64,000 bases of DNA from an uncultured Candidatus Saccharibacteria bacterium (lineage in GTDB: Bacteria; Patescibacteriota; Saccharimonadia; Saccharimonadales; CAYUUR01): positions 4,419 through 68,418 of the forward strand of contig CAYUUR010000004.1 in the NCBI GenBank assembly GCA_964448075.1, read 5' to 3'. A program made the translations under genes and the position numbers. Under the pieces are notes generated by a model. The model saw nothing but the letters and a program-made list of their open reading frames with translations. It was not told where the DNA came from and searched no databases. How positions within the stretch are numbered: position 1 is the stretch's first letter; the number at the start of each line of letters is the position of its first letter. This document shows positions 4,245 through 17,970 of the stretch, piece after piece.

Positions 4245-4350
4245 TAAGCTCGGTGCGACAAATAGATTCAGCCCGGTTTGGTTGCTACACCTATGTCTTA
4301 GTGTTAGCATAAGTGTAATAGGTAAGTTAAGGTTGGTTGTTCTGACGAGA

Positions 4351-6450
4351 ATGAACGTAAGAATACGAAACGTGAGCGGATTTTTTGCCAAACTGTCGTT
4401 GTTAGGGCTATTCGCTATTCCTGTCGTTATGATGACTTTATCAGCTAATGCTGAAACGATAATTACAGACTACGAATATGCCAATATAATGGGCGGTACT
4501 GGGGCCGAAGTTACTAACGCTGTCGCAACTGACAGCAATAATAATGTATATGTAGCGGGTTATTTTAATGGTACTGTCGACTTTGACCCCGGCGCTGGCA
4601 CAGACAACAAAACATCGGCTGGGGGCAGGGATATCTTCGTAACTAAAATCAACGCTGACGGCAGTTACGGCTATACCAAAACCATGGGTGGCGTTGGCAC
4701 TGATGGGGCTAACGCCGTCGCTACCGACCAAGATGGCAATATATACATTGCTAGCCCCTTTAATGGCACCGCCGACTTTGACCCCGGCGCCGGCACTGAC
4801 AATAAAACTTCCGCCGGAAGCACAGATATCGCACTGACCAAAATCAACGCCGACGGCACCTATGGCTATACCAAAACAATCGGTGATACCGGTGCTGATA
4901 CTCCTTATACCCTCGCCACCGACCAAGGCGACAATATATACGTTGCAGGCGCCTTCACTGCCACAGTCGACTTTGATCCTGGCGCCGGCACCGACAACAA
5001 AACATCGGCAGGTGGCACAGATGCATTCCTGACCAAAATAAATGCCGACAGCAGTTACGGCTATACCAAGATTATTGGTGGTGCTAGTGCTGATAGTGCT
5101 TATGCTATTGCTACCGACCAAGACAATAACGTATACATAGCTGCCAGATTCTATGCCACCGCCGACTTCGACCCCGGCGCCGGCACCGACAACAAAACCT
5201 CCGCTGGGAATATGGACGCCTCACTAACCAAAATCAACGCTGACGGTACTTACGGCTATACTAAAACCATAGGCGGCACTGCCTATGATCAAGTGAATTC
5301 TCTCGCAACTGACCAAAACAATAATGTATACATTGCGGGTAATTTCCAAGGTACCGCTGACTTCGACCCTGGCGCTGGTACGGATAATAAAACAGCTACA
5401 GGCGGGTCTGATGATGGTTTTGTGACGCGAATAAACGCTGACGGCTCCTACGGCTATAGTAAGTTTTTCGGCAGTACTAATAACGATAATGTTTATGCCG
5501 TCACCACCGACCAGGATGGTTATATATACTTAGCAGGGGAGTATATAGGCACTTTAGACTTCGACCCGGGCGCTGGCACCGACATTAGAACATCAGTAGG
5601 GTGGTCTGATGCATTTCTCACAAAAATGAATGCCGACGGTACTTATGTCTACGCAAAAACCATGGAAGGACAAAGTGGAGCTGATGAAAGTTATGGTAGT
5701 TCTGTTGCTTCTGACTCGAGTAATAGTATCTATTTAGCAGGCTATTTTTGGGGCACCCTAGACTTTAACCCTGATGTAGCCACAGACAGCAAAACCTCCG
5801 CCGGCAGCAGTGATGTTTTCCTCACCAAACTCACCCAAACCACCTACCAACAAATCACTGGCCTTGCACCATCCCTCGCAGCTAAGACTCTCTCTAACAC
5901 AGACGCCACAGACAACACCATTGAAAACGGTACTAGTGCTACCATACGCCTGTCGCTGAGTGACACCACTCCCATCGCCGACGTCACCACCACCTTCACC
6001 ACTGACCTCAACTGGTCCACCGTGACCGCCGACTCTAACCTCACCACCGGCACTGCCTTTGCCCACAACCTCACAGCTGCAGACGGTACTGCTGGCACCT
6101 TCACTCTCTATGTCCCCAAACTCCCGAACCACACGAGAGTAGGCATCTGTCCTGGAGCGAGCTCCCTAGCAGCAACAACAGAACAATGCGAAGGACTGTA
6201 CTACCTCACAGAAGGAGTAGACAACAACCTCACCACCACAACCATAGATGCCCAAGACTACTGGACCATTACCGGCCTCACCGGCACCGGAGGCTTCAGT
6301 GCAGAGGCTGCAGCAACCACTACAGACGCAGACACCGATACAGACGCTTTGGCGGAGACGGGGGAGAGCCAGACAAATATCTTGTATATTTCGTTGATTA
6401 TTCTAGGGATTTCTATAATTCGTTTGCGAAGTCGATACAGCAAAGCTTAG
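4351..6450 (+). CDS. sortase-anchored surface protein, seven-bladed SBBP-type beta-propeller, LAETG sorting signal
   Basis: 699 aa from ATG 4351 (listed ORF starts at 4282). Signal peptide ends ...TLSANA. Seven ~65-aa repeats follow (DFDPGAGTDNKTSAG..D.F.TKINADG.YGYTK...ATDQ..N.YIAG), then a Thr/Ala-rich stalk. LAETG (6349-6363) is followed by a hydrophobic helix and an RLRSRYSKA tail. Confidence 0.85.
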   Translation: MNVRIRNVSGFFAKLSLLGLFAIPVVMMTLSANAETIITDYEYANIMGGTGAEVTNAVATDSNNNVYVAGYFNGTVDFDPGAGTDNKTSAGGRDIFVTKINADGSYGYTKTMGGVGTDGANAVATDQDGNIYIASPFNGTADFDPGAGTDNKTSAGSTDIALTKINADGTYGYTKTIGDTGADTPYTLATDQGDNIYVAGAFTATVDFDPGAGTDNKTSAGGTDAFLTKINADSSYGYTKIIGGASADSAYAIATDQDNNVYIAARFYATADFDPGAGTDNKTSAGNMDASLTKINADGTYGYTKTIGGTAYDQVNSLATDQNNNVYIAGNFQGTADFDPGAGTDNKTATGGSDDGFVTRINADGSYGYSKFFGSTNNDNVYAVTTDQDGYIYLAGEYIGTLDFDPGAGTDIRTSVGWSDAFLTKMNADGTYVYAKTMEGQSGADESYGSSVASDSSNSIYLAGYFWGTLDFNPDVATDSKTSAGSSDVFLTKLTQTTYQQITGLAPSLAAKTLSNTDATDNTIENGTSATIRLSLSDTTPIADVTTTFTTDLNWSTVTADSNLTTGTAFAHNLTAADGTAGTFTLYVPKLPNHTRVGICPGASSLAATTEQCEGLYYLTEGVDNNLTTTTIDAQDYWTITGLTGTGGFSAEAAATTTDADTDTDALAETGESQTNILYISLIILGISIIRLRSRYSKA
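4474..5835 (+). repeat. seven tandem coding repeats, period about 195 bp (propeller blades)
   Basis: The GACTT[TC]GACCC core recurs at 4579, 4774, 4969, 5164, 5359, 5557 and 5761 (spacing 195, 195, 195, 195, 198, 204 bp), all in frame within the 4351..6450 CDS. Confidence 0.85.
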
Positions 6451-8159: not shown

Positions 8160-9161
8160 ATGATTAACGCACTCACTATCAAAGACAATACCCTGAGCCA
8201 AACCAAAGAAATGCTCAGGCACGAAATATTAGGGCGTGGTTGGGAGCTCTGGTTCTATGATGTGTCGTATCCACAGATGCGCGTGCGACGTTCCGATGGC
8301 AAGATACTGGAGCTCTACGGATCAACCCCGCCGACTACAAGCTATGCCGCAGGATTAACTGCAGACAATAAGCTCATTTCTTCTATCTTGCATGCAGAAG
8401 CTGGCCTACCTGTTCCAGAAACCTATGCGCTCAGTAGTGCTGATAGCGGCAAAAATATTGCCAATCAACTTTTAGATACACAAAAGAAAATTGTCGTGAA
8501 ACCTTTGGATGCTGCACACGGTAATGGCGTGAGCGTGGGGATTGAAACGATTGAGGCATTTGAGCAGGCGGTTGCGGTTGCGCGTGAATTCAGTAGCACC
8601 GTCATTGTACAAGAGCACCTAACACAAAGTTATGATATAAGACTCCTCTGCATTGACTATGCGTGTGTGGCTGGGCTTTTGCGCTTGCCAGCATCGGTAG
8701 TCGGCGATGGCAAGCAAACGGTCAGCCAGTTAATTGCTCATGAAAACACCGATGAACGCAGAGGTGTTAATTATGCCAAAGAACTCAACATTATAAACAT
8801 TGATCATGCTAAACGCTTCTTAGGCAAACAGATACATGATATTCCGCCAGCAGGTAAGCACGTGCAAGTGGTCGGGACTGCAAATGTTGGTACGGGGGGT
8901 TCAACAAAGGATATATCGCGCATCACTCCAGCCTGGCTGACGGCTATGGCTGAACAAGCAGCAAGAGCTTCGCGTCTGCCGTGCTGTGGTGTTGATTTTC
9001 TACTCAGCAGTGAGCCAAGCTTGCAAGCGACAGAGTCCGAGTTGCAACCCAAGCTCCTAGAAATCAACAAGTCGCCCTCGCTTTTTATTCACGAAACACC
9101 AACAGAAGGCGACTCAATGCCGGTTATCAAACAATACGTTGATTATCTAGCTAGTCTGTAG
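8160..9161 (+). CDS. ATP-grasp ligase resembling the N-terminal ATP-grasp module of cyanophycin synthetase
   Basis: 333 aa from ATG 8160. Collinear with my recollection of CphA: VVKPLDAAHGNGVSVGI, IVQEHL..YDIRLL, VVGDGKQTVSQLI, GTANVGTGGSTKDIS, CGVDFLL, LLEINKSPS. No Mur-ligase module. Confidence 0.75.
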   Translation: MINALTIKDNTLSQTKEMLRHEILGRGWELWFYDVSYPQMRVRRSDGKILELYGSTPPTTSYAAGLTADNKLISSILHAEAGLPVPETYALSSADSGKNIANQLLDTQKKIVVKPLDAAHGNGVSVGIETIEAFEQAVAVAREFSSTVIVQEHLTQSYDIRLLCIDYACVAGLLRLPASVVGDGKQTVSQLIAHENTDERRGVNYAKELNIINIDHAKRFLGKQIHDIPPAGKHVQVVGTANVGTGGSTKDISRITPAWLTAMAEQAARASRLPCCGVDFLLSSEPSLQATESELQPKLLEINKSPSLFIHETPTEGDSMPVIKQYVDYLASL

Positions 9162-10389
9162 AAGTTGTTACATAGACAGCAGTGTTCAGATAATCTACAT
9201 CACGTGTAAACTGCGCAAGGTCAGGATTATGCAGCATGACGACAGCAGTCATTTTGTAACCGTCAGATGATTTACCAATTTTGTCACCTGGCCTATATTT
9301 GAGCTTGTAGTCGATTAATGAGGGCAGCTTCTGTAGTTCTGCCTCGTGTGCGATTCCAGTAAATATACCTGGTGTTTTAGGAAACAGCTCGAACACGCCA
9401 AATGGATCATTTCTCTTTGGGGCGATCAGTGGTGTTTTTCCGAGAGATAAACGCAGCGCGTTACCCGTGATATCGATACCATTTGCTATGTCATGCATAC
9501 GACTGCGGTACCCCCCGTTGCGCGCGCCAATCTCTACTATTCGTGGTCCGTCGGTTGTGAGAATAATTTCGATATGTGCTGCGGTGCTTTTCATGCCGAG
9601 TGCCCGACAGCCCAGAGCGGCAGTTTCACGAATTTCTTGGATCTTGCTTGCGGGCAGGGCAGATGGCAGTAGTCGACTATAGTGAAAGTTATCATCGTAG
9701 CCGATATCGTGTCCGGTTTGATAGTCAACGACCTCTTGTAATACAAAAGGTTGGCCAGTGCTATCTACAAACGCATCGACCGAATGGATGCTTCCTTCCA
9801 TAAATTCCTCGATGATAAACTGAGGTTTCTGATGCGGTGCATAGCGCTTATAAATTGCTGATTGTTTAGCCTGAATACGAGCAAATGATTCGAGCATCTC
9901 AGACTCGTTTGATACCTTGCTCACGAGGAGACTCTTTGCGAGGTTTGTGGGTTTGATGATCAATGGAAAAGCATGATTACGTGCGAAGTCCGTGAGGTCT
10001 TGCGCCGTGTTAACAATTGCAAAGTCTGGACTGATCTTAGCCGGCGCTTGTGCAAATAACTGGCGCATGACGAATTTGTCTGTGCAGGCTTGTGCCGCGG
10101 CAACAGGGCAACCGGCCAGGTCATATCTCTCTGCAAGTTTAGCGGCGATCACGATATATTGCTCGTAGAGCGCATAGACAGCATCAAAGGCGTGCACTTT
10201 ATGTAACTCATCAGCAGCAGCTATAATACTGGATTCATTAGAGAAGTCGCAGAGTACGCGACGCTTTATATGTTTATCTGGGTTAGCAACAGCGTGGTTG
10301 TCGCGCAGCAACACGTATTCGTTACCGTGGTCGAGGATGTATTTGTTGAGGCCACTGAAGCTCTGGCCAACGATTAAAATAGTGCTCAT
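9151..10389 (-). CDS. ATP-grasp carboxylate-amine / L-amino-acid-ligase-type enzyme
   Basis: 412 aa from ATG 10389 (listed ORF uses TTG 10398). Pre-ATP-grasp N-domain, PLIIKPTN, IIEEFMEGS, AHIEIILTTDGPRIVEIGARNGG. Its 3' end overlaps the convergent gene by 11 bp. Confidence 0.7.
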   Translation of the reverse strand: MSTILIVGQSFSGLNKYILDHGNEYVLLRDNHAVANPDKHIKRRVLCDFSNESSIIAAADELHKVHAFDAVYALYEQYIVIAAKLAERYDLAGCPVAAAQACTDKFVMRQLFAQAPAKISPDFAIVNTAQDLTDFARNHAFPLIIKPTNLAKSLLVSKVSNESEMLESFARIQAKQSAIYKRYAPHQKPQFIIEEFMEGSIHSVDAFVDSTGQPFVLQEVVDYQTGHDIGYDDNFHYSRLLPSALPASKIQEIRETAALGCRALGMKSTAAHIEIILTTDGPRIVEIGARNGGYRSRMHDIANGIDITGNALRLSLGKTPLIAPKRNDPFGVFELFPKTPGIFTGIAHEAELQKLPSLIDYKLKYRPGDKIGKSSDGYKMTAVVMLHNPDLAQFTRDVDYLNTAVYVTTSTD

Positions 10390-10391
10390 GC

Positions 10392-10420
10392 TTGACAAAA
10401 TTACCTTTTCATAATAAAAT
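10392..10420 (+). promoter_or_regulatory. candidate sigma70-type promoter TTGACA-17-TAAAAT
   Basis: Consensus TTGACA at 10392-10397, an exactly 17-nt spacer, TAAAAT at 10415-10420, 68 nt upstream of the rimB-like ATG. AAAATTACC is repeated at 10397 and 10416. Confidence 0.45.
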
Positions 10421-10487
10421 TACCATAAATTCATACAGAATTCAAGGTATTAGATACGCGTTTTGATACTATATAAGTGGTTCGTAT

Positions 10488-10985
10488 ATGAAAAAAGATT
10501 ACATTAGAAAAGTCGTTATTGGTCGCGCAGAGCTCTTGCATTTTATGGAGTTCTCGATTGCTGACGTACCCGCAAAGGTAGACACCGGCGCATATCGTTC
10601 ATCAGTCCATGCTGACAATATTGCCTTGAATGATGACGGTACAGAACTAACCTTCCGTCTACTTGGCCAACACCCCTTGTTCAAAACGGTCGCCGAGACG
10701 GTAACTACAAAGAACTTTGAGCGCGTCTGGGTGACAAATTCTTTTGGTCAAAGAGAAGAGCGGTTCGAAGTAAAGCTCAAAGTAAAGATCGGGCCAAAGG
10801 TGTTCTGGGGCAAGTTTACCTTGGCTAACCGGGCAAAGATGCTATATCCGATTCTGCTTGGACGTACGTTGCTCAATAAGCGATTTCTTGTTGACCCGTC
10901 GCTACAAGGTGTTAACAGGCTCGAATTAAAGAAGCAGTATGGTATCGTATTGCCAATAGACGAAGAAGAGGAATACAAAACATGA
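10488..10985 (+). CDS. RimK-associated retropepsin-like protease (RimB / ATP-dependent zinc protease family)
   Basis: 165 aa with AKVDTGAYRSSVHA and PILLGRTLL motifs typical of the family found next to rimK. Its stop overlaps the rimK start (ATGA). Confidence 0.75.
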   Translation: MKKDYIRKVVIGRAELLHFMEFSIADVPAKVDTGAYRSSVHADNIALNDDGTELTFRLLGQHPLFKTVAETVTTKNFERVWVTNSFGQREERFEVKLKVKIGPKVFWGKFTLANRAKMLYPILLGRTLLNKRFLVDPSLQGVNRLELKKQYGIVLPIDEEEEYKT

Positions 10986-11896
10986 ATATAGCAATTCTAT
11001 CCAATGGCCCCGGCAACTATTCAACTAAGCGTCTCAAAGAAGAGGCTTTGCTTCGTGGTCACACGGTACGCATTGTTAAGTATCGTGATTGTTATGCTGC
11101 AATCGAGCGTAGTAACCCGGCGGTAAGCTACCGAGGTGAAGATCTGCGCGGTATTGATGCTGTCATCCCGAGGATTGCTAGCAGCATGACTCGTTACGGT
11201 GCAGCTATTGTGCGTCAGTTCGAGATGCAGGGTGTGTACACGACCTCCACCTCCATTGCAATTGTACGTTCTCGCGACAAGCTGCGTAGCTTGCAGCTGC
11301 TTACTAGAACCGGTGTGGGCATCCCAAAGACTGTCTTCTCGCGGAACACTGCCGATATTGACGATTTGCTAGAGCAAGTCGGTGGCACTCCTGTTGTGAT
11401 AAAGCTGGCCCGTGGAACACACGGCAATGGCGTAGTACTGGCGGAGACCAAAAAGGCAGCCAAATCAGTACTTCAGGCGTTTTATTTGCACAACGAAGAC
11501 GGCACTAACATTCTGCTGCAGGAATTTATCGAAGAGGCTGGCGGTGAAGATATTCGTGCATTTGTGGTTGGCGGACGGGTTGTTGCCAGTATGAAGCGTC
11601 AAAGCCTTGACGATGACTTCCGTAGTAACCTACACCAAGGTGGTGAAGGTTCGGTTGTGAAGCTGACTGACGAAGAAAAGAAAACAGCCATCAAAGCCGC
11701 TCGTGCGATGGGTCTGCCAATCTGTGGCGTAGACATGATGCGCTCAACACATGGACCCCTTGTGCTTGAAGTGAATTCCAGCCCTGGTTTTGGCATCGAG
11801 AAGGTGACCGGACGTAACGTTGCGGCGCCAATTATTGATTATATCGAGCGAAACGCCACCAGCAAACGGGGCAAGCGTGATCGTATCGGCGCTTAA
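10982..11896 (+). CDS. rimK: RimK-family alpha-L-glutamate ligase (ribosomal protein S6 modification type)
   Basis: 304 aa ATP-grasp: MNIAILS.., VVIKLARGTHGNGVVLAE, ILLQEFIEEAGGEDIRAFVVGGRVV, GVDMMRS..GPLVLEVNSSPG. Confidence 0.9.
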   Translation: MNIAILSNGPGNYSTKRLKEEALLRGHTVRIVKYRDCYAAIERSNPAVSYRGEDLRGIDAVIPRIASSMTRYGAAIVRQFEMQGVYTTSTSIAIVRSRDKLRSLQLLTRTGVGIPKTVFSRNTADIDDLLEQVGGTPVVIKLARGTHGNGVVLAETKKAAKSVLQAFYLHNEDGTNILLQEFIEEAGGEDIRAFVVGGRVVASMKRQSLDDDFRSNLHQGGEGSVVKLTDEEKKTAIKAARAMGLPICGVDMMRSTHGPLVLEVNSSPGFGIEKVTGRNVAAPIIDYIERNATSKRGKRDRIGA

Positions 11897-13685: not shown

Positions 13686-15005
13686 ATGGACGAAAACACC
13701 CCACCACAAGTTCCAAATGCTCAAGCACCCACAGAGCCAGAGCAGCCGCAACCGGCTTATAAATCGCTACCAGAAGAAGGTAATAACAAGCCAAAAAGTA
13801 AAAGAAAAATTGTTATTGTCCTCGTGGTTCTATTGCTTGTCATGGGTGTAGGTGCAGCGGCATTCTTTTTTTTCCGAAGCGAGCCGGCCGTCCAAACTAC
13901 AAATAACGCCGCAACTGAGGAACCCACCGTAAAGCCAACCCCTGCACCAACAAAGCTATGGCTCACATCCTACTACGACAAGACAGATAAGTTTGCAGAA
14001 ATTAGCTACGACGGATCTGAGGTAACATCAGTTAAACAACCCTATACTCCATCGACGAGCAGTAAATACATTGCACGAATTACTGAGAAAGGCGTAGAAG
14101 TATCAGCCGCAAGCAAGCCTGAAGAAGGTGTGGTAGTACTGGAGAAAAAGAAGGGCGAGTCAGTTGATTTTGCTTGGTATGATGATGCCGACGAGCTGAT
14201 TGTTTCAACCAAGCTTATTGCCAACAAGCCTGCAAAACCAGACCAGTACTATATTCCTGATGTTCGTCAGTCGTTTTATAAAGTAAACCCAGACGGTTCG
14301 GGTAAAGAGAAGTTGTTTGATCAACAGACAACCTACGGATCAGCATTCATTATTGGCGCATCTGACAAACGACAAGAATTCTACTGGGGAGTAGAGACGG
14401 AGGGGGGTCCAGCAGCACTACTCAACATCAGCTCTCTTGAAACCGGTGAACTTGTGAAAAAACTAAATCCAAAAGCCAATGATAGTGGAAAAATAACTAT
14501 CCTTGGCAGTAATGCGTACTATATTTCGACAGCTGACACCATCCGCAATATAAGCCTAGACACATACAAAGATAGCTTGGTAGCGAATCCTCTTGGTGAC
14601 ACAGCGGGTATCTCGACGACAGCCCTGACAGCGACATGTTCAGTCGGAGGTTCTATCGAGAGCATGATAAAAGTTTACGATAGTGCAGATACCTTACTAT
14701 TCAGCACTGTTACAAACAAGCCACATAAGAGTGGTATTTACCAATTGAATCTAGAAACAAAGAAGTACGTGAGTCTAACGGGGTTTGATTCAGTCAGACA
14801 AATAAAGTTGCTCGCGAGCACTGAAGAAAAAGTAATTTTCTCAAGAAGCGACGCAAATATATGTAACGCAAAGAACGAAAAATCAGCTCCGAGTACTATT
14901 ACTGTGTTTGACCAGGCCACCAAGAAAAGCACAGAGGTTGATATAGATAGTAGCGAAAAATATATCAATGCTTCAGTTGATTTTTTTGCCAAGCCAGCCA
15001 ACTAG
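13686..15005 (+). CDS. hypothetical N-terminally anchored extracytoplasmic protein
   Basis: 439 aa. Pro/Gln-rich N-terminus, Lys-rich stretch, one TM helix (IVIVLVVLLLVMGVGAAAFFFF), then ~370 aa with no motif I recognise. AAGGAT lies 5 nt upstream. Same architecture as 55982..57313. Confidence 0.65.
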   Translation: MDENTPPQVPNAQAPTEPEQPQPAYKSLPEEGNNKPKSKRKIVIVLVVLLLVMGVGAAAFFFFRSEPAVQTTNNAATEEPTVKPTPAPTKLWLTSYYDKTDKFAEISYDGSEVTSVKQPYTPSTSSKYIARITEKGVEVSAASKPEEGVVVLEKKKGESVDFAWYDDADELIVSTKLIANKPAKPDQYYIPDVRQSFYKVNPDGSGKEKLFDQQTTYGSAFIIGASDKRQEFYWGVETEGGPAALLNISSLETGELVKKLNPKANDSGKITILGSNAYYISTADTIRNISLDTYKDSLVANPLGDTAGISTTALTATCSVGGSIESMIKVYDSADTLLFSTVTNKPHKSGIYQLNLETKKYVSLTGFDSVRQIKLLASTEEKVIFSRSDANICNAKNEKSAPSTITVFDQATKKSTEVDIDSSEKYINASVDFFAKPAN

Positions 15006-15023
15006 TAGCCAGTCAAAACTAAA

Positions 15024-16679
15024 CTATGCAGGTGGAGGAGCAGTCACAATCTTGCGCGATTCTTTTTTGACCTGCTTACCCTGGTCGTCAACTTCATAAA
15101 CAAGTATTTCTCCAAACGGCATTTCTAGTTTGGCGACATCAGCATCGGAAATACCTTCAATGTATTTCATCAGGGCACGGATGGCGTTTCCGTGCGATAC
15201 AACCAGTACGTTCTGACCATCAAGCACTTTTGGCAGAATTTTTTCCGTATAGAACGGCACGGCACGGGCATAGACGTCTTTGAGCGATTCGCCGTTTGGC
15301 ACAGGGAAGTTCCATTCACGCCGGATGCGGTTAAATGTCTCTTCGCCGATGCTGTCGCGCATTTCCCACTTATTCTTGCCCGTATAATCGCCATAGTCAC
15401 GTTCGTTAATTGCATCACTGCGTTCAAATTGAACGTCAAATTGTTGCGAAGAATCGAGGATGCCCTCTAATGTTTCGAGCGCTCGAATCTGCTGGGATGT
15501 GAAAGCATAATCTATTGGCACATCAACAAGTTGCTGACCCAGCAAGGCAGCCTCGCGGAAGCCTTTTTCGCTCAAGTGCACATCCGTACTGCCAGTCCAC
15601 TTGCCGAGCGCGTTCCATTCTGATTCGCCATGACGAGTGATGAGCAGCTTGCCTGTTTTTTTGGTAGGAGGTTTGACCATATTGGTTGGTTTGCCTTCCA
15701 AAAAGCTGACGATGTTTTGAGCGGTCGTTTGGTTGATACGTTGGATTGCTTCGTAGGTGTTGTAGGCTATGTGTGGAGTAATGATGACATTGGGCATCTT
15801 TTTGAGTGCACTGATTTCTACACTCATCTCGAGCATACTTGTTGGTAGTTTTTCACGACGGAGCAAGAGCAGCTCTTCTTCAACGCTGAGTAGTTTTTCA
15901 CCTTCTATCACGTCAAGTCCAAGACCGCCGATTTGACCATTTTGTTTTGCCTCAAGCAGTGCTTTGGTATCAATAAGTTCACCACGGGCAGTGTTGATTA
16001 GCACTGCTCCGCGTTGCATTTTGCTGAGAGTCTCGGCGTTGATCAAGTGGTGATTTTCTGGAGTGTAGGGAATATGCAAAGACAAAACGTGACACTTCTT
16101 AATAGCCGTTTCAAAATCTACATATTCAAAGCCGATTTCCTTGGCGACCTCATCTTTTGGAAAGGGGTCGTAACCAATCACTTCCATGCCAAAGCCTCGA
16201 GCGATGCGCGCCATGTACTGGCCGATATGGCCACAGCCAAGAATCGCTAGGGTTTTGCCTTTGAGGTCATGGCCAGTGAGGGTGGGTGCATTGATGCTTC
16301 CAGACTTGACCGCTTCTAGTGTGCCGGGGATCTGCCTGGTTAAAGATAACAAAAGTGCAAAGGCATATTCAGCAACGGTGTTTTCGCCATAGGTCGGCAC
16401 ATTCACAACGACGATATTTTGAGCAGACACGGCGTTAAAGTCGATGTTGTTGTAGCCAGTCGAACGGCAAGCTATCAGACGGAGTTTGGGCATTTTGGCA
16501 ATTATTTCGGCCGTCACATCACTAGTTACAAATACGGATATAATCTCGGCTTCTGGGTCGGCATTCTCGGCGTTTATTGATTCGCCTACAAACCTATAAT
16601 CTTTCTGGACTTCATTTAATCCGTCTGTTAGATGAGACGTGTCTGTTTGGGTTGCATCATAAAAGACTATACTGGACAT
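15024..16679 (-). CDS. fusion protein: D-lactate-type D-2-hydroxyacid dehydrogenase (N) + 2,3-bisphosphoglycerate-dependent phosphoglycerate mutase (C)
   Basis: 551 aa. Residues 1-~340 carry GKTLAILGCGHIGQ (NAD fold), INTARGELID, LGLDVIEGE and ITPHIAYNT. Residues ~350-551 carry LLITRHGESEWN and VVSHGNAIRAL (histidine-phosphatase dPGM). Domain junction is near 15650. Confidence 0.9.
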   Translation of the reverse strand: MSSIVFYDATQTDTSHLTDGLNEVQKDYRFVGESINAENADPEAEIISVFVTSDVTAEIIAKMPKLRLIACRSTGYNNIDFNAVSAQNIVVVNVPTYGENTVAEYAFALLLSLTRQIPGTLEAVKSGSINAPTLTGHDLKGKTLAILGCGHIGQYMARIARGFGMEVIGYDPFPKDEVAKEIGFEYVDFETAIKKCHVLSLHIPYTPENHHLINAETLSKMQRGAVLINTARGELIDTKALLEAKQNGQIGGLGLDVIEGEKLLSVEEELLLLRREKLPTSMLEMSVEISALKKMPNVIITPHIAYNTYEAIQRINQTTAQNIVSFLEGKPTNMVKPPTKKTGKLLITRHGESEWNALGKWTGSTDVHLSEKGFREAALLGQQLVDVPIDYAFTSQQIRALETLEGILDSSQQFDVQFERSDAINERDYGDYTGKNKWEMRDSIGEETFNRIRREWNFPVPNGESLKDVYARAVPFYTEKILPKVLDGQNVLVVSHGNAIRALMKYIEGISDADVAKLEMPFGEILVYEVDDQGKQVKKESRKIVTAPPPA

Positions 16680-16710
16680 TACTACATAGTATAAGATAAG
16701 CGTAACCGTT

Positions 16711-17970
16711 ATGAAAATACATAAACTATTTGCTCGCCAGATATATGACTCACGTGGCTATCCGACAGTTGAGGCTGAGCTGTATTTAGACGATGGTTCA
16801 TTTGGTCGGGCCTCAGTACCATCTGGGGCGTCAACAGGCACTCATGAAGCTTTAGAATTACGAGATGGAACCAAAGATTATGACGGTAAGGGTGTGGAAA
16901 AAGCTGTGCGAAATATAAATGTTACGATTACGCACGCCCTACTCAAAAAATCATTCGACTCACAACAGCAGCTAGACAAGGCATTAATTGCGCTGGATGG
17001 CACAGATAATAAATCCAAACTTGGTGCCAATGCAATACTGGCGGTTTCTTTGGCGTTCGCTAAGGCTATGGCGGCTTCTGCTCAGCAGCCATTATTTCGA
17101 TACGTTCAGTCTATAGCTGGAGTCCAACAAGTTACTATGCCAGTCCCATATGTGAATGTTTTAAATGGCGGCAAGCATGCTGTAGGCGGCTTGAGCGTCC
17201 AAGAATGCATGATAGTGCCGCATGGCGCCAAGAACATGAACGACTCATTGAAGATGGCCAGTGAAGTATTCCATTCGTTAGGCAAAATTCTATCAGATGC
17301 CAAGCAACCGACGACGGTTGGTGACGAGGGTGGATACGCCCCGAGTTTGCAAAAAGAAGAGGACGGATTAGATCTTCTAGTGAAGGCAATTACTCACGCC
17401 GGCTATCAGCCCGGTAAACAGGTTAGTATCGCTATGGATGTTGCGGCGAGTGAACTGCTGGTCGATGGCAAATACGTATTTGGCAAAAGGCACTACACGA
17501 CTGACGAGCTAATCGCGTGGTATCAGAAACTGACTGAGGATTATCCGATAGTGTCGATAGAAGACGGGCTGAGCGAAGATGACTGGCTGGGTTGGGCCCA
17601 GCTGACAGCTCAGTGTGGCGGCAAGACACAGTTGGTTGGTGATGATTTGTTTGTCACTAATTCCCATCGTTTGCGAGAAGGCATAGACAAGCACGTTGCC
17701 AATAGTATATTGATAAAGCCAAACCAGATCGGTACGTTAACAGAAACAGTCGAGACGGTGCTGTTGGCCAAAGCGAACGGCTACCGAGCTATGGTTTCGC
17801 ATCGCTCTGGCGAGACAGAGGACACTAGCATTGCGCACATTGCCGTCGGGTTGGGTGTGGGTCAGATAAAGACAGGATCGTTTTCGCGCACAGAAAGGCT
17901 CTGTAAGTACAACGAACTACTCAGAATCGCCGAGCTCGTCCCGCATGTCCAATTTGGCAACGGCTTATAA
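16711..17970 (+). CDS. eno: enolase (phosphopyruvate hydratase)
   Basis: 419 aa with ARQIYDSRGYPTVEAE, SVPSGASTGTHEALELRDG, LVGDDLFVTN, IKPNQIGTLTET and SHRSGETEDT. Confidence 0.97.
   Translation: MKIHKLFARQIYDSRGYPTVEAELYLDDGSFGRASVPSGASTGTHEALELRDGTKDYDGKGVEKAVRNINVTITHALLKKSFDSQQQLDKALIALDGTDNKSKLGANAILAVSLAFAKAMAASAQQPLFRYVQSIAGVQQVTMPVPYVNVLNGGKHAVGGLSVQECMIVPHGAKNMNDSLKMASEVFHSLGKILSDAKQPTTVGDEGGYAPSLQKEEDGLDLLVKAITHAGYQPGKQVSIAMDVAASELLVDGKYVFGKRHYTTDELIAWYQKLTEDYPIVSIEDGLSEDDWLGWAQLTAQCGGKTQLVGDDLFVTNSHRLREGIDKHVANSILIKPNQIGTLTETVETVLLAKANGYRAMVSHRSGETEDTSIAHIAVGLGVGQIKTGSFSRTERLCKYNELLRIAELVPHVQFGNGL

Follow-up and report, generated by a model that had tools for sequence, protein, structure and literature searches.

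A probable bifunctional protein of Saccharibacteria joining an LdhA-type dehydrogenase to a cofactor-dependent phosphoglycerate mutase beside the enolase gene

A single reading frame in the DNA of an uncultured Saccharibacterium joins a D-2-hydroxyacid dehydrogenase to a phosphoglycerate mutase, and the locus raises the question of whether such a chain is real, what each of its halves would do, and why the two enzymes should have been joined. The gene is located in a 64,000-nucleotide stretch of DNA, hereafter the window, where it lies back to back with an enolase gene. The reading that we favour, at a probability of about 0.72, is that it encodes a bifunctional enzyme of Saccharibacteria (class Saccharimonadia) that arose by the merging of operon genes and is expressed from a leaderless mRNA. 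The features of the locus are as follows.

15024..16679, minus strand: whole fusion gene, 551 amino acids plus stop, ATG start; D-lactate dehydrogenase (D-LDH)-type dehydrogenase, linker and short cofactor-dependent phosphoglycerate mutase (dPGM)
15675..16679, minus strand: dehydrogenase half, residues 1-335; LdhA-type D-2-hydroxyacid dehydrogenase
15651..15674, minus strand: linker KPPTKKTG, residues 336-343; eight residues rich in Lys and Pro, from the alignment of relatives
15024..15650, minus strand: dPGM half, residues 344-551 plus stop; short-form cofactor-dependent phosphoglycerate mutase
16680..16710, no strand: divergent intergenic region, 31 nt exactly
16688..16701, minus strand: putative promoter-like element, GCTTATCTTATACT, from a consensus scan and conservation
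16711..17970, plus strand: enolase, 419 amino acids; divergent partner of the fusion gene

The Pfam domains of the chain are 2-Hacid_dh (PF00389, residues 10-334, 104.9 bits) and 2-Hacid_dh_C (PF02826, residues 107-305, E 3e-56, 190.1 bits), both above the gathering cut-off, followed by His_Phos_1 (PF00300, residues 345-539, E 1.3e-42). The motifs KPPTKKTGK, RHGESEWN and SHGNAIRAL were located at residues 336-344, 349-356 and 495-503, respectively. Reading frame, domains and motifs thus agree with a preliminary description of this DNA, which had proposed one 551-residue chain made of a complete D-LDH-type module and a complete dPGM module; the enolase partner that it had placed across 31 bp is likewise found there, on the opposite strand.

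That description had also warned that an assembly or frameshift artefact could have joined two separate genes, and an error of gene calling would have the same effect. The same 551-residue protein, identical throughout, is present in an NCBI contig and in two independent Logan assemblies, SRR16481186 and SRR31893885. The comparison was extended to 80 species loci, which are GTDB species representatives and the best 80 of 493 genome matches; in each of these genomes a single tblastn alignment spans the junction, and in 79 of them the fusion is one uninterrupted reading frame. In the remaining one (L027) the reading frame contains a stop near codon 28, and its junction is unaffected. Furthermore, 118 full-length homologues, from clusters of approx. 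550 residues, have an identical architecture at 55-91% identity. These independent assemblies and orthologous loci (best 80 of 493) exclude an artefactual origin, to which we assign a negligible probability. The linker varies in sequence among relatives and is nearly constant in length, except in one homologue (P0123) where the alignment shows 26 additional residues. An internal start that would yield a free mutase was also considered and rejected, given that M334 is not conserved in the aligned relatives. In both halves, every residue assigned to catalysis or cofactor binding is the same in all 118 homologues, and at this level of divergence such invariance indicates purifying selection on each half.

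The genomes that carry the fusion have titles that are nearly all Saccharibacteria or Saccharimonadales, contigs of 0.8-1.2 Mb included (best 80 of 493). The architecture is not rare but the standard form across many Saccharimonadales, being conserved in at least 80 species of Saccharibacteria. The preliminary description had considered that it might turn out to be both common and already characterised: it is common, within one bacterial class, and no characterisation of it was found. The literature retrieved by full-text search does not mention the fusion, in a coverage that leaves out most subscription journals, so that this absence is not proof. Its annotation is one-sided, since NCBI names it dPGM and JGI names it D-lactate dehydrogenase. 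As each pipeline names one half, reconstructions that allow one function per gene could drop the other, so that the mutase or the lactate dehydrogenase would go missing. It has been reported that D-LDH is present only in clade G6 (PMC8386444) and that PGM is enriched in animal-associated Saccharibacteria (PMC8406219); annotation of half of the protein might bias claims such as these.

The C-terminal half has the residues of a dPGM. The RHGxxxxN motif, with R349, the phospho-histidine H350 and N356, is accompanied by the second catalytic histidine (H496) and by E426, and these five residues are invariant in the 118 homologues. The mutase-specific residues R399, R427, Y429, K437, R453/R454 and N498, which align with those of the Schizosaccharomyces pombe enzyme, are equally invariant, with R453 found in at least 90% of the homologues; from the yeast and E. 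coli structures, we take their roles to concern the carboxylate and the second phosphate of phosphoglycerate. His_Phos_1 also includes many RHG phosphatases of approx. 210 residues, and PspA, PhoE, CobC and FBPase-2 are among the PDB matches of this half, which could in principle be a PspA-like phosphoserine phosphatase or a sugar-phosphate phosphatase instead of a mutase. This is very improbable in view of several comparisons: the half matches the TIGR01258 (pgm_1) model, whose cut-off is 81.7, with 175.1 bits; its score with E. coli GpmA is 134 bits and with YtjC 52; and in the PDB the 28 top distinct sequences are all PGM or BPGM (87-152 bits), after which the score drops to 63 bits for the phosphoserine phosphatase PspA and 58 for PhoE. 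On this last ranking a phosphatase identity was rejected; the conserved mutase-specific residues, R427 to N498, and the adjoining enolase gene also speak against it. Family placement makes the C-terminal half a genuine dPGM rather than a phosphatase of the same superfamily, and it would carry dPGM activity, the 2,3-BPG-dependent interconversion of 3-PG and 2-PG.

In the N-terminal half, the NAD motif G148-x-G150-x-x-G153 with D171, the substrate residue Tyr97 and the catalytic residues R232, E261 and H303 are invariant in the 118 homologues, and the last four align with the Tyr and the Arg-Glu-His triad of the Aquifex and E. coli D-LDHs. The insertion that characterises LdhA-type enzymes between the catalytic Glu and His is present at approx. 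residues 262-297. When compared with the E. coli paralogues, fetched from MG1655, this half scored 199 bits with LdhA, 156 with GhrB, 108 with SerA, 65 with GhrA and 59 with PdxB, and in a neighbour-joining tree it is the sister of LdhA. This answers the question of placement among LdhA, SerA and GhrB that the preliminary description had left to phylogeny, and its SerA-like alternative is not supported for this protein, given the score of SerA and the presence of the insertion; on the same paralogue comparison, GhrB and PdxB identities were discarded as well. In the PDB the top seven distinct sequences are of D-LDH type, five of them labelled D-LDH, and the best matches include the D-LDHs 3kb6, 5z20 and 5z1z, the last of which, like 3wx0, is the E. 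coli enzyme. D-LDHs also head the Foldseek list obtained with an AlphaFold model of the fusion (pLDDT 87.9, pTM 0.64), with target-normalised TM values of 0.81-0.90. From the rankings, the tree, the insertion and the structural model, we conclude that the dehydrogenase half is LdhA-like. It would be an NAD-dependent D-lactate dehydrogenase interconverting pyruvate and D-lactate. Neither half holds new chemistry, both being ordinary enzymes.

The NCBIfam profiles are less decisive, since none of the dehydrogenase models of any subfamily reaches its curated cut-off, and substrate specificity is thus not fixed by profiles; the D-LDH model NF006374, with a cut-off of 356, gives 174, but these models are narrow equivalogs, and a failure to reach them does not exclude the LdhA subfamily. 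The top raw score belongs to the PGDH model TIGR01327 (220 against a cut-off of 454), with glyoxylate reductase next, which would fit a dehydrogenase whose substrate is not pyruvate but a C3 acid akin to the substrate of the mutase half, such as a hydroxypyruvate/glycerate or 3-phosphoglycerate dehydrogenase. Under such an assignment the two halves would share one metabolite or use neighbouring ones, as in the SerA-like alternative mentioned above. Another lineage also pairs the same dPGM, fused or adjacent, with a dehydrogenase resembling GhrB and glyoxylate reductase; this pairing indicates that the association of dPGM is with 2-hydroxyacid dehydrogenases in general and not with LdhA alone. 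We consider such a substrate improbable, however, because all the NCBIfam scores are far under their cut-offs, SerA scores well below LdhA among the E. coli paralogues, and the active-site segments match those of the lactate-bound Aquifex D-LDH structure, including an identical TPHIAY. In addition, alignments with PGDH structures end at approx. residue 261 of the fusion, as do those with glyoxylate reductases, because these proteins are without the LdhA insertion. No ACT domain was detected in the fusion with Pfam, and no genes for glycerate kinase, SerC or SerB were seen in the neighbourhoods listed.

The genes around the fusion point to the pathway in which an LdhA-type dehydrogenase and a dPGM would meet. 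The enolase of this locus has the Pfam domains Enolase_N and Enolase_C, and its TIGR01060 score is 570 bits (cut-off 300). An enolase gene adjoins the fusion in 73 of the 80 species loci (best 80 of 493), in divergent orientation in 61, co-directional in 11 and convergent in one; in the 61 divergent species the gap has a median of approx. 47 bp and is 84 bp or shorter in 52. Loss of enolase in CP064992 was ruled out by a tblastn match to an intact gene 473 bp upstream. A PEP synthase gene that passes the equivalog cut-off follows downstream on the same strand in half of the loci (40/80), and a gene similar to pyruvate kinase is found nearby in approx. 28 (both among the best 80 of 493), neither of the two genes being present in this window. 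As to adjacency, the link to enolase drawn in the preliminary description is correct; that pair is embedded in a wider conserved module, in which PEP synthase and pyruvate kinase are often found as well.

As to whether relatives carry split or fused forms, the fused state prevails as stated above, in 79 of the best 80 of 493 matches; in another lineage, one locus (L009) is split. In it a GhrB-like dehydrogenase and a dPGM lie in frame, with one TAA and three codons between them, in an operon that continues with pyruvate kinase and enolase. The L009 dehydrogenase belongs to another 2-hydroxyacid dehydrogenase subfamily, so that this locus is an analogue of the precursor and not the precursor itself. 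A second fusion (P0128), present in two independent assemblies, joins a GhrB-like dehydrogenase to the same dPGM, again with enolase adjoining. Given its location within a conserved lower-glycolysis module, the fusion of the present locus is best explained by the merging of neighbouring operon genes: loss of a stop codon would have united the dehydrogenase and dPGM genes of a lower-glycolysis and fermentation operon that comprised dehydrogenase, dPGM, pyruvate kinase and enolase.

The segment in question would run from 3-PG through 2-PG, PEP and pyruvate to D-lactate, the fusion catalysing its first and last steps and the middle ones being encoded beside it, by enolase in nearly all species and by PEP synthase and pyruvate kinase in many. 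The statement that the fusion ties two non-consecutive steps together, made in the preliminary description, therefore holds. Since the steps are non-consecutive and there is no intermediate to channel, the two active sites are most likely independent, and the fusion may have been retained because it fixes the 1:1 co-expression of both ends of the segment in a very small genome. A minimal genome would in this way pack the conversion of 3-PG into D-lactate in a compact and possibly co-regulated module.

The presence of PEP synthase also allows the module to be read in the opposite direction, as a mainly gluconeogenic route in which the dehydrogenase half would oxidise host-derived D-lactate to pyruvate, whose further conversion by PEP synthase and enolase, and finally by the mutase half, would supply 3-PG for the synthesis of sugars and cell wall. 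The neighbour in 40 of the 80 species (best 80 of 493) is indeed PEP synthase and not pyruvate kinase, and the path from lactate to 3-PG has exactly four steps, those of D-LDH, PpsA, enolase and PGM. In E. coli, growth on lactate or pyruvate requires PpsA. A flux model of TM7x and its host, as cited in a preprint, points to lactate exchange. This direction is nevertheless unlikely in our view; the gene similar to pyruvate kinase in approx. 28 of the 80 loci (best 80 of 493) speaks against it. NAD-dependent D-LDHs of the LdhA type are normally pyruvate reductases, and the NAD+-linked oxidation of lactate is thermodynamically unfavourable. Published reconstructions assign the D-LDH of Saccharibacteria to fermentation (PMC6031116).

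With fermentation as the preferred direction, the fusion may still be more than a device for co-expression, either as the core of D-lactate assimilation or through control of the mutase half by the NADH-binding half, although we regard this as doubtful. The pTM of 0.64 means that the arrangement of the domains is not fixed by the model, and a functional contact between them is possible. If it were so, a module of D-LDH, PpsA, enolase and PGM would feed Saccharibacteria on host D-lactate, or the flux through lower glycolysis would be coupled to the redox state via the dehydrogenase half; likewise, the recurrent and independent pairing, by fusion or adjacency, of the same short dPGM with two dehydrogenase subfamilies and with pyruvate kinase would represent a physical assembly of lower glycolysis typical of Patescibacteria.

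Both halves have well-studied relatives. The LdhA-type D-LDHs of Aquifex aeolicus (3kb6), Pseudomonas aeruginosa (5z20) and E. coli (5z1z/3wx0) match the N-terminal half over its full length with 33-36% identity, and share with it the triad, the Tyr, the GxGxxG-Asp NAD site and the insertion between Glu and His; these are stand-alone proteins of approx. 330 residues, whereas here a mutase is joined at the C-terminus. The C-terminal half is colinear with residues 9-207 of the S. pombe dPGM (1fzt, 211 residues; 152 bits), and both are without a segment of approx. 25-30 residues of the long dPGMs while keeping the catalytic and substrate residues. In contrast to 1fzt, it is not a free protein, and has neither an N-terminal Met of its own nor a conserved internal start. 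As a fusion, the closest parallel is PGK-TIM of Thermotoga maritima, likewise a covalent union of two non-consecutive glycolytic enzymes from neighbouring genes, whose advantage has been called enigmatic (PMC7729029). The enzymes differ, and Thermotoga makes free PGK besides the fusion, whereas nothing suggests two products here; the present protein would be a second natural case of such a fusion. In 6-phosphofructo-2-kinase/fructose-2,6-bisphosphatase, a different catalytic domain acting in carbohydrate metabolism is likewise followed by a C-terminal His_Phos_1 domain, but those two activities work in opposition on a single regulatory metabolite, while the halves described here would act on different pathway intermediates.

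Another aspect of the locus is how so short an intergenic region could serve the fusion gene. A -10-like TATACT ends 8 nt before its ATG, with no Shine-Dalgarno sequence after it. Among the divergent loci, 40 of 50 have a -10-like hexamer 7-11 nt away from their ATG, and a sequence similar to Shine-Dalgarno is found in only 2 of 49. In this region a scan with the promoter consensus gave 5 sites where 4.8 were expected, that is, not above chance, and the case for a promoter comes entirely from conservation. A conserved -10-like motif without a ribosome-binding site suggests a putative promoter for a leaderless or near-leaderless mRNA; the fusion gene is thus probably transcribed from a conserved, extended -10-type promoter in the region common to it and enolase. 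A leaderless mRNA would explain the tiny gap between the two genes, and the element would be among the few cis-elements defined in an uncultivated phylum. The motif CTTAT[GC]N1-3ATA[AC]T has 40 matches in the 80 loci (approx. 750 kb; best 80 of 493), most of them directly upstream of the fusion. With this distribution, CTTATG...ATAAT was discarded as a promoter motif in general use in these genomes; the window contains one other, loose match.

The LdhA-dPGM fusion is a real and conserved domain architecture, apparently undescribed, that is made of two ordinary enzymes. As the preliminary description stated, it is encoded as one polypeptide of 551 residues, and its start codon lies exactly 31 nt from that of a divergent enolase gene. 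The features of this region are the following:

Features around the fusion gene in the window
13686-15005, convergent with the fusion: membrane-anchored protein, 439 aa
15024-16679, minus strand: fusion gene, one ORF with an ATG start, 551 aa
16688-16701, minus strand (that of the fusion): promoter-like element GCTTATCTTATACT, its -10-like hexamer ending 8 nt before the ATG
16711-17970, plus strand: enolase, 419 aa
18009-18899, plus strand: bPH_3 (bacterial PH domain) and pyridoxamine-5'-phosphate-oxidase-like gene

Pfam assigns 2-Hacid_dh and 2-Hacid_dh_C to residues 10-334 and His_Phos_1 to residues 345-539, all far over their gathering cut-offs, and the motifs named earlier (the KPPTKKTGK linker, RHGESEWN and SHGNAIRAL) are all present. 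The enolase is a standard one (TIGR01060, 570 bits versus a cut-off of 300), and the 64-kb window contains no further copy of either half of the fusion. The stops of the fusion and of the convergent membrane-anchored protein are separated by 18 nt (15006-15023), in which no terminator-like hairpin was reported.

The possibility that an assembly or frameshift artefact had joined two genes, raised in the preliminary description, was ruled out, since the same protein with unchanged neighbours is recorded in an NCBI contig and in two independent Logan assemblies, and the junction is spanned by one tblastn alignment in all 80 species loci examined; in a single locus the frame is interrupted by a stop, close to codon 28 and well away from the junction. 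These loci are the best 80 of 493 relatives that were confirmed when a single genome of each GTDB species was scanned; they represent 80 different species, each matching both halves, and almost every record title reads Saccharibacteria or Saccharimonadales. At least 120 clusters of some 550 aa, all with the same three Pfam domains and 55-100% identity, were retrieved from 5.8 billion protein clusters, and several belong to 0.8-1.2 Mb contigs. At the level of 50% identity (1.84 billion representatives), full-length fusions fall into very few clusters, with P0121 as the main one; P0123 is at 44% identity, and P0128 has a different dehydrogenase half. Therefore, the architecture is restricted to a lineage, yet standard inside it.

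NCBIfam does not decide the identity of the dehydrogenase half, as every dehydrogenase model stays below its cut-off; the PGDH model has the top raw score (220 versus 454). The first seven distinct sequences in the PDB ranking belong to D-lactate dehydrogenase (D-LDH) type enzymes and align over the entire half, whereas PGDH and glyoxylate-reductase structures align only up to approximately residue 261, because of an LdhA-type insertion of about 35 residues between the catalytic Glu and His that the fusion has in common with the D-LDHs of E. coli, Pseudomonas and Aquifex. Compared with the paralogues of E. coli MG1655, the fusion scores 199 bits with LdhA, 156 with GhrB, 108 with SerA, 65 with GhrA and 59 with PdxB; these scores and the truncated PGDH alignments leave the SerA-like identity considered earlier unsupported. 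The phylogenetic placement called for at that time locates the fusion clade beside LdhA in a neighbour-joining tree that includes these paralogues. Likewise, the AlphaFold2 model of the fusion (pLDDT 87.9, pTM 0.64) finds its best PDB fold matches among D-LDHs (target-normalised TM 0.81-0.90). The PDB ranking, the insertion, the paralogues with the tree, and the predicted fold agree in indicating an LdhA-type dehydrogenase, and disfavour an enzyme linked to hydroxypyruvate or 3-phosphoglycerate (3-PG), which we consider improbable.

The C-terminal half was correctly recognized as a cofactor-dependent phosphoglycerate mutase (dPGM): it exceeds the TIGR01258 cut-off (175 bits versus 81.7) and is colinear with the short 211-aa dPGM of S. 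pombe (152 bits), which is followed in the PDB ranking by 27 more PGM/BPGM entries before the scores drop to 63 bits for PspA, a phosphoserine phosphatase, and 58 bits for PhoE. These results, and the higher score of E. coli GpmA (134 bits) versus the phosphatase-like YtjC (52 bits), speak against a phosphatase role for this half, to which we assign only a very slight chance.

When 118 fusion proteins are aligned, the dehydrogenase triad (R232, E261 and H303), the carboxylate-binding Y97 and the NAD-site residues G148, G150, G153 and D171 are invariant, as are R349, H350, N356, R399, E426, R427, Y429, K437, R454, H496 and N498 of the mutase, where R453 is kept in at least 90% of the proteins. 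Judging from these residues, both halves seem to be catalytically intact. Relatives differ in the sequence of the linker and hardly in its length; Met334 is not conserved, so that a conserved internal start yielding free mutase is unlikely.

The surroundings of the fusion are those of lower glycolysis.

Neighbours of the fusion in the 80 species loci
Divergent enolase directly upstream: 61
Enolase ahead of the fusion on the same strand: 11
Convergent enolase downstream: 1
No enolase found in the locus DNA searched: 7
PEP synthase just downstream, same strand: 40 (L014-L073, also L001)
Pyruvate kinase (PK)-like gene nearby: about 28

Among the divergent loci, the gap between enolase and fusion has a median of about 47 bp (84 bp or less in 52 of the 61), and the 31 bp of the window are the norm. 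The neighbouring PEP synthase passes both NCBIfam equivalog cut-offs (e.g., 792 aa at 8787-11165, plus strand, of L001). The window, which has neither a PEP synthase nor a PK gene in its 64 kb, belongs to a lineage that retains only the enolase-fusion pair. Thus, the first and last steps of the route 3-PG to 2-PG to PEP to pyruvate to D-lactate reside on one protein, with genes for the middle steps adjoining. In published reconstructions the D-LDH of Saccharibacteria is a fermentative, NAD+-regenerating step (PMC6031116); the frequent proximity of PEP synthase would suit a gluconeogenic operation from D-lactate to 3-PG, a direction that seems rather unlikely. The called genes of L001 omit an intact enolase (4280-5527, minus strand) that tblastn recovered, revealing that gene tables are incomplete. 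The bPH_3/oxidase-like gene recurs near the pair in several lineages (L010-L012, L040 and L042, also L004 and L006).

The promoter-like element follows the pattern CTTAT[GC]N1-3ATA[AC]T, which is kept at this spot even in relatives of about 55% protein identity, and an element at the same position, some 22 nt ahead of the fusion ATG, is present in L014-L075. Most of its 40 matches in about 750 kb of loci lie directly upstream of the fusion, and within the loci examined the pattern is specific to this gene. In 40 of 50 divergent loci a -10-like hexamer precedes the start codon by 7-11 nt, and a Shine-Dalgarno-like sequence is found in only 2 of 49; in some of the loci where the fusion follows a co-directional enolase, GGGTGGG- or GAGG-like ribosome-binding sites take the place of the element. 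A promoter scan alone gave chance level in the 31-bp region. From these sequence patterns we infer that the fusion mRNA is leaderless or near-leaderless, transcribed from a conserved putative element without a Shine-Dalgarno sequence. In many loci a second conserved block, TCTTCTCAT, lies nearer to enolase.

Split as well as fused forms, a comparison also proposed earlier, were found among relatives. In another lineage, one operon of L009 (1030-4692, plus strand) encodes a GhrB-like 2-hydroxyacid dehydrogenase (324 aa), a dPGM (210 aa, 54% identical to the C-terminal half of the window fusion), an unusually short PK (267 aa, its score just equal to the TIGR01064 cut-off) and enolase; the dehydrogenase and dPGM genes share one reading frame, with one TAA and three sense codons between them. 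P0128 is the fused counterpart of this pair and a second type of fusion, a GhrB/glyoxylate-reductase-like dehydrogenase with the same short dPGM, present in two independent assemblies (L099, 5001-6596; L100, 3019-4614) with enolase next after it. In both, this enolase is broken up into ORFs of 252 and 166 aa, and JGI labels P0128 as 'glyoxylate reductase' alone. The same short dPGM also occurs in fusions with a PK barrel, placed before or after it, and with a PPDK_N fragment (P0178, P0267 and P0242), although some of these could be gene-calling artefacts. Therefore, the merging of neighbouring lower-glycolysis genes is recurrent in this group, and the Saccharimonadales LdhA-dPGM fusion, which probably originated in this way, as the L009 and P0128 pairs illustrate, is its most successful case.

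In the full-text-searched literature on Saccharibacteria or CPR metabolism D-LDH or PGM are mentioned, but the fusion is not. Of the systems described, the Thermotoga PGK-TIM fusion comes closest; it likewise joins non-consecutive steps, and its benefit is unexplained (PMC7729029). The fusion is no surprise in kind; it helps the annotation and understanding of the compact carbon metabolism of Saccharibacteria.

Two other proteins combine or resemble these modules. P0129 (929 aa) has an N-terminal His_Phos_1 without the RHG motif followed by two LdhA-like dehydrogenase modules, and possibly represents a third and independent joining of these folds. P0126 (L008, 4001-5026) is a stand-alone 341-aa D-LDH, 51% identical to the N-terminal half of the fusion, with a linker-like C-terminal end (...NKVPPAPHI); it is encoded after ParB-ParA-L21, like the P0123 fusion in L097, and may have secondarily lost its mutase domain.
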